From: a virus
Taxonomy: Duplodnaviria > Caudoviricetes
DNA: 38,180 bases
Direction: 5' to 3' (one strand)
IMG/VR virus record: IMGVR_UViG_3300024999_000025
Location: 1-38,180 of that record
The notes below the pieces were generated by a model. That model was given only the letters and a program-made list of their open reading frames with translations, made no database searches and was not told the DNA's origin. Numbering within the stretch: the first letter of the stretch is position 1; every line of letters starts with the position of its first letter. The position numbers were made by a program, and so were the translations under genes. Positions 4,342-17,547 of the stretch are shown here, piece by piece.

Positions 4342-5952
4342 TCACCACCTAAATATTTCATTTGGTACATTTCTACCCATATCATCAAGCATTTTTTCAA
4401 ATTTACCTTCTTCGCTTTCGGGGTCAATTTCTTTTGGTATATCTGCTTTATAGTTTCTCATTATACAAAACCCTCTCAATGCGTCTGGTGCATGTGTTAT
4501 TTCGTGAGGCTGTGTATCTACATCGTTCGGGTTATCCTCGCATTGTTTTAATTGCGGTAAACATCTTATAAGGTTGGTACAATTATTAAATATTTTCAAC
4601 TTAGAAGTCTTTATTCTTTCTCCTGTTTGTTCATCTCTTGTTTCAGACACTTTTAGAAACTCTTTAACAGCTAACCAACCATCCTCCCTGTCATTACTTG
4701 ATGGATAACACTCCTCGCCGCACTCTCTAAATATATCCATTGCACTTCTGCCTGTTTCTTGTCGTCTATTATCTAAGTCAGGCGGTGCATACTTATGATA
4801 TATTTTATCCTTCCCATTGACTTCCTTTATTCTCTTGGCGGCTTCTGATATTATTAAATCGCTCTCATATAATTCTTTATATACATATACATTCTCTTGC
4901 ATGTCTATTGCAAACCATAGATTAGCCAACATATCAAGCCCATAGTCTTTAGATGTGTATCGGTTCCAGTGGTCAGGGATGGGGAATGGTTCAATTACAT
5001 GTATGTCTTTTCTGAACTCTTTAAAAAAGTGATTGCCATACATCCCCCATTGCCCTAGCGCATATACGTTAAACTCCTCTGGATTGTCTTGCTGCTGTTT
5101 AAGTAGTGTCTGACTGTATGTATCGTCTATAAACTTATTATCTAGGTATGTTGAGTGCATTATAAGCGTATTGACTTTATACCGTTCTACGTCCTTATTC
5201 AGTTTGTCGTCCCATATATTAATCTTTTCTGAAAAATCCGGTAATATAACATTCTTGTAATATGTGCAATCATCAAAATGTTGTTTGCCACATAGCATTA
5301 ATTGACCAGATTCTTTTCTGTCGAAGAATAATGGCTTCATGTAGCAAGTTTCATGCACTGGATTAAAACTGAATGATATTTGCATATACTTTTCAGTTCC
5401 GTTTTTGTTCTTGCCTTGATATCCTCTTAATCTTCTTTCAATCTCTCTTAGCGATGCAGGCTCAATCTGGTCTGCTTCTTCTAACCATGCCCCAGTTATA
5501 TCAAATATTGATTTAAGTTTGTCGGGATCATCAAGTCCCCAAAATATAAACTGGTTCCCTTTTGGCAGGTATGTTATTGATTCATGTCCTTTGCTAAGAT
5601 TAATCTTCCATTCGCCTTTTGCAAAGCTTTCTTTATACCTTGCTTTTATCCTAGATACTATTAGTGGTACTTGCGATTCACTTATTTGCTTTTGTTCTGC
5701 TCTACTGCAAAGGAATCTATGGCCATCTTCCTCAAATACTCTATCTATATGCTTATCGGCTATCTCGTAAGACTTACCAGAGCCAGATCCACCTATTAAA
5801 ACAGCGTACCGTCCTTTAAACTGACGATACGCCTCGTATATTTCGTTACGTTGTTTTGCTCTCTCCTTCGCCTCTGCCAGACATTTTTTAAAGTTGTATA
5901 GATATGTATTAATACTATCACCTCTATTGTTTAGGCTCACTTGGTTTTGCAT
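4342..5952 (-). CDS. terL: Terminase large subunit
   Basis: Walker A GGSGSGKS, Walker B WLEEA, SFNP, HSTYLDN, nuclease motifs DYG and HAPDALR; start uncertain (possibly ATT at 5913). Confidence 0.95.
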   Translation of the reverse strand: MQNQVSLNNRGDSINTYLYNFKKCLAEAKERAKQRNEIYEAYRQFKGRYAVLIGGSGSGKSYEIADKHIDRVFEEDGHRFLCSRAEQKQISESQVPLIVSRIKARYKESFAKGEWKINLSKGHESITYLPKGNQFIFWGLDDPDKLKSIFDITGAWLEEADQIEPASLREIERRLRGYQGKNKNGTEKYMQISFSFNPVHETCYMKPLFFDRKESGQLMLCGKQHFDDCTYYKNVILPDFSEKINIWDDKLNKDVERYKVNTLIMHSTYLDNKFIDDTYSQTLLKQQQDNPEEFNVYALGQWGMYGNHFFKEFRKDIHVIEPFPIPDHWNRYTSKDYGLDMLANLWFAIDMQENVYVYKELYESDLIISEAAKRIKEVNGKDKIYHKYAPPDLDNRRQETGRSAMDIFRECGEECYPSSNDREDGWLAVKEFLKVSETRDEQTGERIKTSKLKIFNNCTNLIRCLPQLKQCEDNPNDVDTQPHEITHAPDALRGFCIMRNYKADIPKEIDPESEEGKFEKMLDDMGRNVPNEIFRW

Positions 5953-6065: not shown

Positions 6066-6140
6066 AATAATCAGCCTACCCCATAGCCACGCTTATTTGG
6101 TGCTATGCCTTGTGCTGCCCACCATCCTCGGCTGTTTATT
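6066..6140 (-). ncRNA. Putative structured RNA (multi-stem hairpin)
   Basis: Outer stem AATAAACAGCC/GGCTGATTATT, inner stem CATAGC/GCTATG; GC-rich intergenic segment. Confidence 0.35.
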
Positions 6141-6143
6141 GCT

Positions 6144-6343
6144 TAATGTGGGTAAGGATTTGCACCTTACAAAATATAAGATAGGCGTGTTGCGACGCCT
6201 TGTTTTATTTGGTCGAGGGTAGTAGAATTAAACTACTACCGAGCAAGCCACTCCTGCTAGTGCTATCGTTACACCAACCCTCGATTTATACGCTTGCTCT
6301 CTCTTATATCTGATTATCGTCTACCTATTCCGCCACCACATTA
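6144..6343 (-). ncRNA. tRNA-like shell (Leu/Ser-type D- and T-arms) with a large insertion at the anticodon arm
   Basis: Acceptor TAATGTGG/CCACATTA, D-region TGGCGGAATAGGTAGACG, stem ATATAAGA/TCTTATAT, GCAA-loop hairpin AGGCGT/ACGCCT, T-arm GTAAGG-TGCAAAT-CCTTAC. Confidence 0.7.
6210..6284 (-). tRNA. Degenerate tRNA-His(GTG)-like gene nested inside the shell
   Basis: T-CGAGGGT/ACCCTCG-A-CCA; D-arm GTGT/GCAC; anticodon arm AGCAG-GAGTGGC-TTGCT; T-arm AGTAG-TTTAATT-CTACT; lacks U33, the D-loop GG and TTC. Confidence 0.7.
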
Positions 6344-6357
6344 TTGCTTATATAGGG

Positions 6358-6516
6358 TCATACTTTGGCATTATAATACTTGCTAAGCAATGTGCTTGAT
6401 GCATCGTAAAGTTTTTTATATTCTTCTCCGATAATCTTATAAAATTCTAACTCTTTTATTTTTTCTTGCAACATTATAACATATTCTTCTGTGTAAATTA
6501 TTGGTTCTTCGCTCAC
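6358..6516 (-). CDS. Micro-gene array member, coiled-coil, 52 aa
   Basis: GTG start supplied by junction repeat GAGGGGGAGTAAGAGTG. Confidence 0.65.
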   Translation of the reverse strand: MSEEPIIYTEEYVIMLQEKIKELEFYKIIGEEYKKLYDASSTLLSKYYNAKV

Positions 6517-6544
6517 TCTTACTCCCCCTCTATGCTTATAGGCC

Positions 6545-6763
6545 CTATTTAGCAATTAACTTTTTAGGGTTTTTGCTCTCTACAAATTTATAAAACGTAT
6601 TTACGTTATTAACAAACTTATTTAATATCATCATTTTGTGATTTTTAGGATAGTCATAATAATAAGGATAGTCCGACAGTAATATCCGTCTAAACTCTCC
6701 TTGGTTTATATTTACTTTGCCATGTTGCAGTATGCTTGCTTCGAATACGTCTACTACATCCAC
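6545..6763 (-). CDS. Micro-gene array member, 72 aa
   Basis: GTG start inside junction repeat. Confidence 0.7.
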   Translation of the reverse strand: MDVVDVFEASILQHGKVNINQGEFRRILLSDYPYYYDYPKNHKMMILNKFVNNVNTFYKFVESKNPKKLIAK

Positions 6764-6765
6764 TC

Positions 6766-6933
6766 TTACTCCCCCTCTATGCTTAAAGGCTTAGTTTGCT
6801 CTAATATTGCCTTTTGCAACTCTGCATCTAGCTTGTCGTAATTGTCTCTAGTCTGGTCGTTGTTTGTTACGCTACACACGTATGCTGCTTGTCTAACAGC
6901 TCTCTCTAGTTCAGATATCTTTGTCCCAGCCAT
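6766..6933 (-). CDS. Micro-gene array member, 55 aa
   Basis: MAGTKISELE...KPLSIEGE; start and stop both lie in repeat copies. Confidence 0.7.
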   Translation of the reverse strand: MAGTKISELERAVRQAAYVCSVTNNDQTRDNYDKLDAELQKAILEQTKPLSIEGE

Positions 6934-6962
6934 TCTTACTCCCCCCTCTATGCTTATAGGCT

Positions 6963-7103
6963 TTACTTGCAAGATAGCCGTTTTATTTCTTTTGCTCTGC
7001 GTATGTATTCGGCATCACTTAATCCCATCACCCAAAACCTTGTTTTTTCTCCAGTTGATAAAGTAACCGTTACTTCTTCGTCGTATCTTTCGACTATATC
7101 CAT
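6963..7103 (-). CDS. Micro-gene array member, 46 aa (not in ORF track)
   Basis: MDIVERYDEEVTVTLSTGEKTRFWVMGLSDAEYIRRAKEIKRLSCK. Confidence 0.65.
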   Translation of the reverse strand: MDIVERYDEEVTVTLSTGEKTRFWVMGLSDAEYIRRAKEIKRLSCK

Positions 7104-7265
7104 TTACTTATCCCCCTCTATGCTTAATAAATTATATAGTTTTGCCATATCCTTGCTTATAGTTTGGACTAATGCAATCTGCTTGCCAGTCAACCCGCTG
7201 TGAAATAATTCTGTCATGTGCGAATCTATTGATGCAAAAAGCACTTCGATTTCTTCTTTATCCAT
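7104..7265 (-). CDS. Micro-gene array member, 53 aa (not in ORF track)
   Basis: MDKEEIEVLFASIDSH...LLSIEGDK; stop abuts next ATG. Confidence 0.65.
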   Translation of the reverse strand: MDKEEIEVLFASIDSHMTELFHSGLTGKQIALVQTISKDMAKLYNLLSIEGDK

Positions 7266-7437
7266 TTACTTCTCCCTCTATATACTCCCTATACTCTGCC
7301 ACTCTATGCTCTCTTATAGGTATACTCTTGCCTAGCTGCGTGAATATAAACCTAAAGGCGAAAGGTTTCTCGCCTTTGGCTACTATGTACGGTTCTGTGC
7401 GTAGTAGTTGTTTTAGTCTACCGTGGTACGGAAACAT
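7258..7437 (-). CDS. Micro-gene array member, 59 aa, with YH and PIREHR motifs
   Basis: GAGGTG RBS then MFPYHGRLKQ...SIPIREHRVAEYREYIEGEVNG. Confidence 0.65.
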   Translation of the reverse strand: MFPYHGRLKQLLRTEPYIVAKGEKPFAFRFIFTQLGKSIPIREHRVAEYREYIEGEVNG

Positions 7438-7951: not shown

Positions 7952-8590
7952 TCACCGTTTTATTATTGCCTGTATCTCTGCATATGTTAACCTTTCGGCA
8001 TTTGCCAACTCGTCAGGCGTTGCTTTAGACTTAAACAGGTCTATGTCTACATCGTAGTTGTAATTAGTATTTGTGGTACCTCCAGAGAGCTTTACATTGT
8101 CCGTAAACATGCCTAAATGCTTGCCTAACTGTACCAGTGCGTTATCTTTGCAATACTGTTTAAATTTAAATGTACCGTTAGGTCCCATTGATACCTCCGA
8201 TATATTACGCGTATCTATTGTGTTGCTATCTTTTAAGTCAATAATAGTTTTATAATCCGTTATAGGATTGCCTAGCTCATCACGCCCTACGACTGTTTTC
8301 TCCGTCCTGTACGATAAGTAGTTACTTATATCATCAAATGCTATGTGTGACAGCTCGTCGACTACCTTTTGTACTGTTAACATGTTCTTTTGCTTCAGTT
8401 CTTCGGTCAATTCTTCGATCCTTGCTGATACCTTGCTATCGTTAAACAATCTGCTTGCATTTTCGTCTATTGTCTTATTCATCATCTTATTGCAATTATA
8501 TGCGTCTTTATACGCCTCACGCTGGCTCATCCCGGCAAATAAGTTTTGAGCGTATCTCTCTTGTTTAATTGTCAACCCCTTGTTTGCCAT
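7952..8590 (-). CDS. terS: Terminase small subunit
   Basis: LTIKQERY...EAYKDAY N-terminal HTH, ELSHIAF, KDNALVQLGKHLGMF motifs. Confidence 0.9.
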   Translation of the reverse strand: MANKGLTIKQERYAQNLFAGMSQREAYKDAYNCNKMMNKTIDENASRLFNDSKVSARIEELTEELKQKNMLTVQKVVDELSHIAFDDISNYLSYRTEKTVVGRDELGNPITDYKTIIDLKDSNTIDTRNISEVSMGPNGTFKFKQYCKDNALVQLGKHLGMFTDNVKLSGGTTNTNYNYDVDIDLFKSKATPDELANAERLTYAEIQAIIKR

Positions 8591-8616
8591 TGTATTCACC
8601 TACCCATCTATATTAT

Positions 8617-11109: not shown

Positions 11110-11180
11110 ATGCCTAGAGAGGGATTCGAACCCTCGTTGTTTCCTTACTGGGAGTTGCTCCTCCATACGCTACTAGGCAT
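11110..11180 (-). pseudogene. Degenerate tRNA-like element
   Basis: ATGCCTAG/CTAGGCAT outer stem; canonical T-arm GAGGG-TTCGAAT-CCCTC; D and anticodon arms not canonical; no CCA. Confidence 0.65.
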
Positions 11181-11550: not shown

Positions 11551-12018
11551 TTATTGCATATATAAAGTGCCATTTAGTGCCATGTTTGTTTTAGTGTTTT
11601 GTTTTATCTTTTTTATTGCATCATTGTGTACCCTAAAACACTCTCTCCTACTATAGTGCATCTTAGCAGGGATCCAATCCCACCTCATGCGGTCAAAATA
11701 CCTCAATTCTAGCACTCTTTTCTCGTCCCTTTCTAATACCATCCACGCACTGTCTACTTCCTCTTTTACGTCCATATACTCGTTTATCTGGTCAATTATA
11801 TGCAATGTATGCTCGCCGTATCTATCTATTAACTGTATTGTTGCTGTCAAGGTTGGGTTACTTATGTCCCCACCCTTTGGCATGTCTGACAGGTGTTGAG
11901 CCTGTAACATATCTCTAGTCTCATCCTTGTAACTGTTTATATCGTTTAGGTCTTTATTTAGCCTTTGTATCTCTTGCGGTATATCTGGGTATAAAATCAA
12001 CTTTTGTTCTATAGTCAT
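11551..12018 (-). CDS. ArpU/RinA-family late transcriptional regulator
   Basis: LSDMPKGG, VLELRY, W..I...MHYSRR.CFR.H..AI sigma-region-4-like C-terminus; last early gene. Confidence 0.85.
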   Translation of the reverse strand: MTIEQKLILYPDIPQEIQRLNKDLNDINSYKDETRDMLQAQHLSDMPKGGDISNPTLTATIQLIDRYGEHTLHIIDQINEYMDVKEEVDSAWMVLERDEKRVLELRYFDRMRWDWIPAKMHYSRRECFRVHNDAIKKIKQNTKTNMALNGTLYMQ

Positions 12019-12043
12019 ATTCAACCCCCAATTTTACTTTTGT

Positions 12044-16172: not shown

Positions 16173-16703
16173 CTAATATGCCTCTGCCATTTCGCCAGCT
16201 TCTAGTTGTGCATATACTGTGCTTCTTAGCTTGTCTATATCTCGCCTAAATTCAGTAGGTAGTAGTTGTCGATTGATTAATACTTCTCTGTGTTCGTTGT
16301 ACATTCGTTCAAATTCTGGTCTTACAAAGCTTGCATTACCCATTAACAACTCTCTGCCTCCAACTGATTTTACAAGGTCGTATACGTCTGGATGGTCTTT
16401 CTTAAGTCTTTGGTAATCATCCGATGTGCTGTATAGGTTTACATATTGTCTAAATATCCCCCACGCTTCCATTCCTGACTTCTTGTGCCCTTGTACGAGC
16501 TCTAAACAATTACTTCTGATCTCCGCTATTGTTGGGTAAAACTTTGATGTTAGCATTATTTTTTGTACTGCCTTGTTTATAATGCTGTAGTCTATGTCTT
16601 TAAGTAGCTCATACCATATGGCTATTTGCTCTTTTGGCATTGTCTTAACTCTGTAATTAGTGTCTAGTATTGCTAATACTGTAAGTAATTCATTATCCTT
16701 CAA
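16173..16703 (-). CDS. Replicative helicase loader/inhibitor (SPP1 G39P-like)
   Basis: IWYELLKD.DY...AV...SKFYPTIAEIR; follows the initiator; TTG start after GGAGG. Confidence 0.8.
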   Translation of the reverse strand: MKDNELLTVLAILDTNYRVKTMPKEQIAIWYELLKDIDYSIINKAVQKIMLTSKFYPTIAEIRSNCLELVQGHKKSGMEAWGIFRQYVNLYSTSDDYQRLKKDHPDVYDLVKSVGGRELLMGNASFVRPEFERMYNEHREVLINRQLLPTEFRRDIDKLRSTVYAQLEAGEMAEAY

Positions 16704-17397
16704 TTCCTTGAGCCCTCCTTTCGGATAACCACTCCTGCATTGTGTCAATATTCTGATCTCTAACTGTCTTTTGTGGCTGATATGTTTGCTTAGGCTTGTC
16801 TGTCCCTTCCCAAGTCCTTACCGCTGCTTCCCAATCTTTCATTGGATTTTTACCGACCTTCCAGCCATTAGACGTATAATAATTAACCCATTTATCTGCA
16901 TCTACTGCATTTTTTCTTTCTAAGCAGTAATTTTTTACTTCTTCGATAGTTGGAGGTACAAATTTTTTAGTATTTTCTTTTTTATATTTTTCTTGTTTGT
17001 TTGTATTGTTTGTATTGTTTGTTTTAGTATGTGGAAGCAATACGTCAACTTCCTTGTCAACCTCTATGTCAACTTCTTTATCAACTTCCTTGTCAACCTC
17101 TATGTCCGAAATATCATATGCAAAGTAATTAATTTTATATTTTGCTGCTATGGTTAACTTACCTTGTATAAAATCTATTCTCTTCCTTTGCTTCAGTTTA
17201 TTACGAGCCTGATTAATACTTTCTCTAGATAAACCTGTAAGTGATTGAAAAGTTGAATTAGGCACAGAAAACCATTTAGTCCAATTAGACATATTATTTA
17301 TTTGATAAAGAGCAAATAAAGTAACTATTTCTGATGTGGAAAGGTTGTTTAACAAAGCCCAATTCCTAAACTCATTCAATTCTTGTATGTAGTTCAA
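16693..17397 (-). CDS. Replication initiator protein
   Basis: N-terminal wHTH (TGLSRESINQARNKL), internal repeats, C-terminal PPTIEEV..YC...NGWKVGKNPMKDW.AAVRTWE. Confidence 0.85.
   Translation of the reverse strand: MNYIQELNEFRNWALLNNLSTSEIVTLFALYQINNMSNWTKWFSVPNSTFQSLTGLSRESINQARNKLKQRKRIDFIQGKLTIAAKYKINYFAYDISDIEVDKEVDKEVDIEVDKEVDVLLPHTKTNNTNNTNKQEKYKKENTKKFVPPTIEEVKNYCLERKNAVDADKWVNYYTSNGWKVGKNPMKDWEAAVRTWEGTDKPKQTYQPQKTVRDQNIDTMQEWLSERRAQGIEG
17043..17106. repeat. Five 12-bp tandem iteron-like repeats (putative origin)
   Basis: TGTCAAC(T/C)TC(C/T)(T/A) x5 inside the initiator gene, next to an AT-rich tract with 9-bp repeats. Confidence 0.75.
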
Positions 17398-17450: not shown

Positions 17451-17547
17451 TGGTTGGGCGGGTAGGATTTTAACCTACATGGTACTAGGCTTTTGTTGTA
17501 CCAGACTAATGCCAAAGAGCCTGCGTATGCTTTCCGCCACCGCCCAA
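17451..17547 (-). ncRNA. Class II (Leu/Ser-like) tRNA-like element with aberrant anticodon loop
   Basis: TGGGCGG/CCGCCCA-A-CCA; D-arm GCG/CGC; AGGCT/AGTCT stem with 10-nt loop; variable arm GGTAC/GTACC; T-arm GTAGG-TTAAAAT-CCTAC. Confidence 0.7.

Follow-up and report, generated by a model that had tools for sequence, protein, structure and literature searches.

Why should a phage carry, between the genes for the two subunits of its terminase, what looks like one tRNA folded inside another, and which part of such an RNA is conserved? The window analysed here, the whole stretch of 38,180 nt, is a complete virus record with terminal repeats and a G+C content of 35.7%. It contains genes for a serine integrase, portal, capsid and terminase (PHROGs), and the virus is likely a temperate phage of Bacillota. 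Sequencing runs containing the window sequence were groundwater metagenomes, possibly its own source; the element DNA was spanned by single contigs with depths of 185 and 60 and zero differences. In run X5 (share 0.06) coverage was confined to the frame ends, and on other contigs of the same runs the frame ends enclosed 90 or 113 other bases.

A nested RNA between the terminase genes

The element is intergenic, follows a row of small open reading frames without PHROG match and is not overlapped by any reading frame of 50 or more amino acids (Table 1). An earlier note on this sequence had assigned it to the late region, which agrees with its place between terS and terL and with the late regions in which relatives were found. 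In the stretch from terS to the element (6514-7310) a stop/ribosome-binding junction of 15-30 nt is repeated ahead of each small reading frame, as in a cassette array. The element itself is flanked by a 10-nt direct repeat (6137-6146 and 6341-6350). The length of this repeat was the greatest among 23 framed members and exceeded that of all 506 mismatched pairs; flanking direct repeats were not found to be a family trait among these 23, and the repeat may mark the insertion of the window copy.

The earlier note described a His-like cloverleaf nested in a tRNA-like shell. This nested structure is real: the inner cloverleaf of 75 nt on the minus strand showed 22/22 pairs at canonical positions, including U-1:A73, and its encoded CCA end is internal. 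The fold of the whole element had a z-score of -4.27 (0/200 shuffles equal) and that of the inner unit one of -3.11 (1/200 shuffles equal). A plus-strand fold was rejected, being weaker and opposite to the gene direction. The shell had been described correctly in its 8-bp acceptor, Leu/Ser-type D arm and T arm, but it lacks a CCA end and its D stem has only 2 bp; the acceptor/T helix comprises 8+6 bp. Likewise the reported GCAA-capped hairpin is present, but it lies inside the ATATAAGA/TCTTATAT stem with a 6-nt loop that is free to vary among relatives, and corresponds to hairpin P2 of the core described below.

ARAGORN, which had been proposed as a check, missed the inner unit at default settings and at a relaxed threshold returned a tRNA-His 'possible pseudogene'. 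In Rfam, including RF00005 (cut-off 29 bits), neither the inner nor the outer unit gave a match at E≤10. The cargos of several relatives (L085, L180, L189, L163, L200 and L023 in our numbering) did pass the Rfam tRNA model. Moreover, the cloverleaf is not the lowest-energy fold of the element. An 8-bp helix formed by 6292-6299 with 6241-6248 (P3) competes with it, the nearest-neighbour energies being -48.6 kcal/mol for the cloverleaf and -52.4 kcal/mol with P3.

Two other tRNA-like RNAs were seen on the minus strand of the window. The one at 17451-17546, just upstream of a replication-initiator-like gene (16693-17397), has a Leu/Ser-type frame with an 8-bp acceptor, a CCA end and an irregular anticodon arm; ARAGORN reported it as tRNA-??? 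and the Rfam tRNA model gave 31.9 bits, and it is without the junction core. The other (11111-11178), downstream of a late regulator (11551-12024), has a canonical T arm and no normal D arm; it scored 20.2 bits, below the cut-off, with a fold z-score of -3.5.

Table 1. Parts of the element and the adjoining terminase genes
Feature	Position	Strand	Basis
Terminase small subunit, upstream, same direction	7952..8599	-	phrog_51, E 3.5e-29
Whole 200-nt RNA: frame, junction core and inner tRNA-shaped unit	6144..6343	-	fold; Listeria phage B025 homolog
Outer frame, acceptor-like stem, 5' strand (8 bp with 6144-6151)	6336..6343	-	pair counts
Outer Leu/Ser-type D arm; 5' anchor of the motif scans	6318..6333	-	
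Conserved UAAUCAG linker, distal end of P1; retained in permuted forms without tRNA frame	6310..6316	-	
Core helix P1, 5' strand (partner 6174-6181)	6302..6309	-	covariation
Junction GA (6300-6301) and leader (6292-6299), the latter the 5' strand of core helix P3	6292..6301	-	
Inner tRNA-shaped unit, state A (U-1 6284, C1 6283, CCA end 6210)	6210..6284	-	
Collapsed 'anticodon' loop AGUGG (6248-6252) and shared strand (6241-6248)	6241..6252	-	
Inner T arm, equivalent to core helix P4 (state A 5 bp, state B 8 bp); U56 is the counterpart of A19 in the D loop	6218..6240	-	
UAAAAC linker (6201-6207) and hairpin P2 (6183-6200), sequence-conserved heart of the core	6183..6207	-	
Core helix P1, 3' strand	6174..6181	-	
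Outer T arm, 6-bp stem, UGCAAAU loop	6152..6170	-	
Outer frame, acceptor-like stem, 3' strand, no CCA after it	6144..6151	-	
Terminase large subunit, downstream	4342..5952	-	phrog_3717, E 4.5e-47

A junction core found in many phages

BLAST yielded a single long homolog, in Listeria phage B025 (69.8%, E 3e-9). It has the same frame and flanking motifs around a different interior without a tRNA. Relatives were then sought by motif, and a tRNA-like frame was found to recur around different interiors, bearing out the suggestion of a shell with variable cargo. In the B025 locus (L001, 2252-2825) rli62-/rliG-like matches below cut-off were seen upstream of the element and an mcrA-motif match downstream. 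A search for loci based on terL returned no relatives. The 5'-side motif scan gave 75 viral matches and the 3'-side scan at least 120, with an estimated total of about 380 viral records. Among the matches listed, 117 distinct sequences were parsed into 88 linear, 13 permuted and 16 unassigned ones, some of the latter being chance matches. L243, L245, L248, L225, L090, L150, L178 and L193 were rejected as members, as they look like chance motif matches, and L247, which is identical to the window, was excluded from the counts.

The shared core consists of P1, GA, P3, an optional P4, UAAAAC and the hairpin P2, with UAAUCAG at the far end of P1. As judged from this sequence comparison, the conserved unit is the multi-helix junction P1-GA-P3-P4-UAAAAC-P2 and neither of the two tRNAs. 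The earlier reading missed this junction as the real unit, as well as its three circular permutations and the helix competing with the cloverleaf. Of the 75 matches to the 5' pattern, 37 carried the exact 3' motif and one had a long P2 loop; four proved to be frames around a small, unrelated insert; the others look like chance. Since these 37 carry it exactly, the 3' motif does not vary where the core occurs, a result that does not depend on the 3' pattern; in the other scan the P2 sequence was fixed by the search pattern, and no variant junction was found among the other 5'-pattern matches.

While the helices are free to vary, the junction bases and five P2 pairs are constant. P1 showed many pair types at each position, and in permuted forms double-sided changes affected 8/8 of its pairs. 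In nine forms opened at P3, 97.3% of cells were paired, 20/29 pairs had changed on both sides, and covariation reached 0.677, against 0.168 after shuffling and no more than 0.149 when the partners were slid. The UAAUCAG linker was unchanged in 9/9 of these, and AAUC was found in 60/62 distinct P1 combinations, although it was partly a selection criterion. A model built from the nine forms scored 128.9 bits in Pseudomonas phage D6 and within the window matched only the P2 region of the element; model R1 had its best match in the window at the UAAAAC/P2 region (22.3 bits, E 2.6e-4).

The core was found opened at three different helices: at P1 in the framed forms such as the window copy, at P3 and at P4. 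It occurs inside a Leu-type frame, inside a C4-like frame or without any tRNA frame. By motif rules, 85 linear members comprised 29 Leu-type, 9 Leu-variant, 24 C4-like and 23 other frames; L169, L174 and L179 were misparsed and left out of the linear P1 and frame counts. Some frames were also seen in other settings. Leu-type frames with short other interiors and no junction core were present in L002 (1503-1630), L026, L077, L034 and L075, and Leuconostoc phage Ln-9 is an example of a frame without the core. In L004 (1501-1830; also in L006 and L008) the outer T loop is split by an insert of ~90 nt, on either side of which the stem is preserved.

The carriers are phages of Bacillota and of Proteobacteria, temperate as well as jumbo ones, among them Listeria phage B025, E. 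coli phage Huey, Pseudomonas phage D6 and phages of Vibrio and Erwinia; one Clostridiaceae genome bin also carried the element, and one variant was covered to 80% in 117/5426 E. coli genomes. In phage Huey the element is located, unannotated, between a Q-like gene and a holin gene. The neighbours of other members were late regulators, terminase, portal, capsid, tail or lysis genes, or tRNA arrays, the last being the location of permuted forms. No gene family recurred more than three times among the 85 neighbour ORFs scanned (out of 100 listed, within about 0.6-3 kb), and most of them had no match. Rfam searches of 20 member loci matched tRNAs in cargos or neighbours and never the core, and the junction RNA was unannotated in the named carrier records examined. 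No description of it was found in the literature searched, a search that mostly excluded subscription journals; the portions of PMC5737381, PMC2864571 and PMC10690425 consulted contain no such motif, although an unnamed candidate in their alignments is possible. By these searches the junction RNA is uncatalogued (no Rfam match) and widespread in phages.

A tRNA-shaped unit interlocked with helix P3

Sixteen further members from targeted scans resemble the window copy in having a tRNA-like cargo that ends within about 8 nt of UAAAAC. These 17 were chosen by eye and their cargos share a mean pairwise identity of 56%. Longer-tailed tRNA cargos (L085, L180, L189, L241, L175, L023, L136, L123, L142 and L176) were not included, since in them P3 encloses the tRNA and the two do not compete. 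In the interlocked set the leader following P1-GA can pair with the 3' strand of the anticodon-like stem over at least 6 bp in 15/17 own pairs and in 21/272 mismatched pairs, and 0/100000 permutations were as good; this test treats own and mismatched pairs alike and sets the window leader 2 nt late (6 not 8 bp). The register of this leader helix is that of P3 in tRNA-free forms, the T arm taking the place of P4. Own pairs also outnumbered mismatched ones in the acceptor (6.5 vs 4.3), the anticodon-like stem (4.8 vs 2.4) and the T stem (3.8 vs 2.2), and 112/119 cells of the leader helix were paired, but own-pair counts for the cloverleaf, P1 and leader helix lean high because the registers were chosen for best pairing. 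The stems of the cloverleaf were assessed by anchored pair counts except for the D stem, for which a MAFFT alignment was used; it was 100% paired in 15 sequences, with double changes. The inner stems thus covary in the 17 members, as expected from the suggested selection on shape and not on decoding, and the homologues show compensatory changes in core, cloverleaf and leader helices.

The strand 6241-6248 is the 3' strand either of the anticodon-like stem (state A) or of P3 (state B). Because one strand has two covarying partners, the cloverleaf and P3 are mutually exclusive, and the RNA is likely to flip between two shapes. Nearest-neighbour ensembles, in which tertiary contacts are ignored, favoured state B in 12/17 members and the helices of state A in 5/17. 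Leader pairing above chance was also seen in 55 members without a whole-tRNA cargo, amounting to 6.5 vs 5.7 bp with a near partner and 5.4 vs 4.4 bp with a far one (0/20000 permutations each; both partners in 38/55), the members being partly related. Alternatively, instead of switching reversibly, the third strand could assist folding or processing in one direction only.

It had been stated that the stems of the inner unit were kept and its loop consensus lost. The former is true, while the apparent loss of the D-loop GG and of TTC reflects a compensated exchange: the window copy and L250 are the only members with U56 and also the only ones with A19, possibly from one event, and this pattern identifies a change from G19-C56 to A19-U56 in which the elbow is retained. 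The anticodon loop fared differently. In 10/17 members it consists of four bases (AUGG, ACGG, GUGG or GGGG), and a 7-nt loop with U33 occurs in 0/17. In the window copy position 33 is A and a G32-C38 pair closes a loop of 5 nt, and the GUG taken for a His anticodon belongs, in the light of its relatives, to a collapsed R-Y-G-G loop. Inspection by eye gave no consistent covariation between the RYGG loop and the CCA end that would indicate pairing.

Nor does the remainder of the inner unit agree with the claimed His identity. In bacteria this identity depends on G-1, C73 and the anticodon, and that of tRNA-Pro includes G72, A73 and G35-G37 (both from the parts of PMC9976931 consulted). With U-1, G72, A73 and U35 the window copy corresponds to neither set: there is no G-1 paired with C73, and G72 and A73 (C1-G72 in 12/17 members) are accompanied by U35, G36 and G37, even though the four-armed cloverleaf with a CCA end is complete. 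A pair between positions -1 and 73 is possible in 9/17 members, G-1:C73 in 4/17, and a CCA end is encoded in 6/17, none of which is among the four with G-1:C73. Some cargos may nevertheless be of His ancestry.

Neither of the two tRNA shapes is obligatory, because most linear members have no recognisable tRNA at P3 and about half of the 17 have no tRNA-type frame: by eye L089 and L239 have a canonical Leu-type frame, about six a variant of it, and in the others none was recognised. At a relaxed threshold ARAGORN called 14/88 linear cargos tRNA, at least one of them spuriously. A T-loop-like motif 12-15 nt before P3 was found by pattern in 12/13 P3-opened forms, and by eye in the 13th, and L233 has a whole tRNA shape on P3. 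This recurrence of a tRNA shape at P3 points more to display of an elbow than to release of a tRNA. In L231 (plus strand) the cargo after the core is a circularly permuted tRNA shape whose acceptor is capped by a short loop.

Adaptor, ribozyme or passenger

Several known RNAs invite comparison. T5 RNA1 has a frame similar to that of the element, in which a Leu-type D arm and a T arm enclose an enlarged interior, and lies in a cluster of phage RNAs; like T5 RNA2 and T4 RNA C and D it is annotated as a stable tRNA-like RNA of unknown function. The junction motif and core model were absent from all nine annotated small RNAs of T4 and T5 (T4 RNA C and D and seven of T5), in which, unlike in the element, no inner cloverleaf or competing helix was visible. 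In bacterial YrlA-type Y RNAs a conserved part that binds protein is linked to a domain with the shape of a tRNA. The element would share this two-domain design, and the L231 cargo is likewise circularly permuted, but in the element the stem that bears the tRNA shape has no constant sequence. Rfam gave no match to this type, and no Ro60/Rsr gene was present among the scanned neighbours (about 0.6-3 kb). Allo-tRNAs and other irregular polycistronic tRNAs resemble the inner unit in their odd acceptor geometry, some being charged but non-decoding; they are however free-standing and have anticodon loops, whereas the unit studied here sits inside a larger junction (PMC5389517, in part).

We consider about evenly poised the proposal that the element is a stable two-domain adaptor RNA, processed by the host, in which the tRNA-shaped part gates the folding of the junction; an adaptor role late in infection, and not that of a decoding tRNA, is likely from the comparisons above. 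The RNA would be transcribed as part of the late transcript and cut out at its outer tRNA-like frame by tRNA-processing enzymes of the host. The local anticodon-like hairpin and the cloverleaf would fold first (state A), leaving the junction incomplete. With its leader unpaired and its elbow intact, the RNA would in this state be recognised by RNase P or a different tRNA-binding protein, which would thereby set the amount of RNA reaching state B. Invasion by the leader would then form P3 and complete the four-way junction (state B), which would bind a conserved partner in the host, a protein or the ribosome. Such a design would work like that of the two-domain bacterial Y RNAs without being one. 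The usual ruler of RNase P is 12 bp. The outer acceptor/T helix, at 14 bp, exceeds it, which counts against processing of the adaptor. Phage precedents exist in the C4 antisense RNA of P1/P7 and the CI RNA of P4, which are named as substrates of RNase P (PMC5499578, in part) and with which the 24 C4-like of the 85 linear members can be compared. The frame of the window copy is Leu-type, and the C4 models of Rfam matched neither the window nor the 20 member loci.

The adaptor has to be weighed against a catalytic RNA. Circular permutation is a trait of hammerhead and twister ribozymes, and the three permutations, together with an invariant junction and five fixed P2 pairs among freely varying helices, fit a self-cleaving ribozyme equally well. 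The junction would then be the active site of a new self-cleaving or otherwise catalytic class, the P3 switch delaying or licensing a cleavage that would help to cut tRNA arrays and the late transcript. The HDV fold is a nested double pseudoknot, in contrast to the three- or four-way junction of the element with its other conserved bases, and HDV-like, twister and hatchet readings of the junction were rejected because their consensus topology does not fit. The permuted forms in tRNA arrays do resemble theta (HDV-like) ribozymes, small structured RNAs adjoining the tRNAs of phage arrays (PMC10879173, in part). Yet neither the window nor the 20 member loci matched an Rfam ribozyme model (hammerhead, twister, pistol, hatchet, HDV-like), and the stabilising frame that usually wraps the core would be superfluous for a one-shot self-cleaver. 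In P3-opened forms, moreover, the tRNA-like domain stacked on P3 has no CCA, so a cut there would free no mature tRNA end, and on balance we regard catalysis as unlikely. Quite improbable, by analogy with GOLLD and ROOL, is a structural RNA self-assembling into oligomers, with the tRNA shapes as passengers and the third strand permitting strand exchange. There was no Rfam match to ROOL or to GOLLD (RF02032), and at 200 nt rather than several hundred the element is four to seven times smaller than GOLLD. An invariant loop containing a palindrome (CGCG) in the permuted forms would suit such assembly, but it is absent from framed forms including the window copy. GOLLD resembles the element as a phage or prophage RNA located near tRNAs and sometimes containing one, and it forms cages; it often exceeds 800 nt, however, and its tRNA lies in a linker and is not interlocked with a core helix (PMC12286853, in part).

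The function proposed in the earlier note, a carrier releasing a His-like tRNA or a decoy for anticodon nucleases, synthetases or sensors of uncharged tRNA, now appears very improbable. It would account for the intact 22 pairs and CCA end of the cloverleaf, for the compensated elbow pair and for G-1:C73 in 4/17 relatives, and HisRS is able to charge irregular G-1 tRNAs that take no part in decoding (PMC5389517, in part). But a decoy of this kind or a His carrier is unlikely because P3 competes with the cloverleaf, the RYGG loop is collapsed and the window copy lacks G-1:C73; the conserved leader helix destroys the anticodon arm, CCA is internal where it occurs and missing from all four G-1:C73 members, and most members of the family have no tRNA cargo. 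That a decayed tRNA was inserted by chance into a decayed tRNA-Leu, without function, is hardly credible. The inner unit scores nothing on the Rfam tRNA model and the 10-nt direct repeat flanks the window copy, but compensatory covariation in core, cloverleaf and leader helices at about 56% identity speaks against it.

A structured RNA that is widespread, keeps its junction invariant and occurs in several circular permutations is usually a ribozyme or an RNA that binds a ligand. Beyond the adaptor proper, we put forward a more far-reaching idea, tentatively and with less confidence: the family may constitute a new class of phage RNA, shared across phyla, in which the junction either acts as a catalyst or recognises a universal factor of the host. 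Captured tRNAs would serve as sensors, the junction being off while a host tRNA-handling enzyme holds the cloverleaf and turned on by strand invasion, a riboswitch that would sense by means of a tRNA mimic. In any case the family spans two phyla, and one of its subfamilies is coupled to a tRNA shape by helices that covary and exclude each other. Since its members measure about 110-200 nt and one is present in an E. coli phage that has been isolated, experiments on the family would cost little, and they could help with an old question, the purpose of the tRNA-like stable RNAs of phages.
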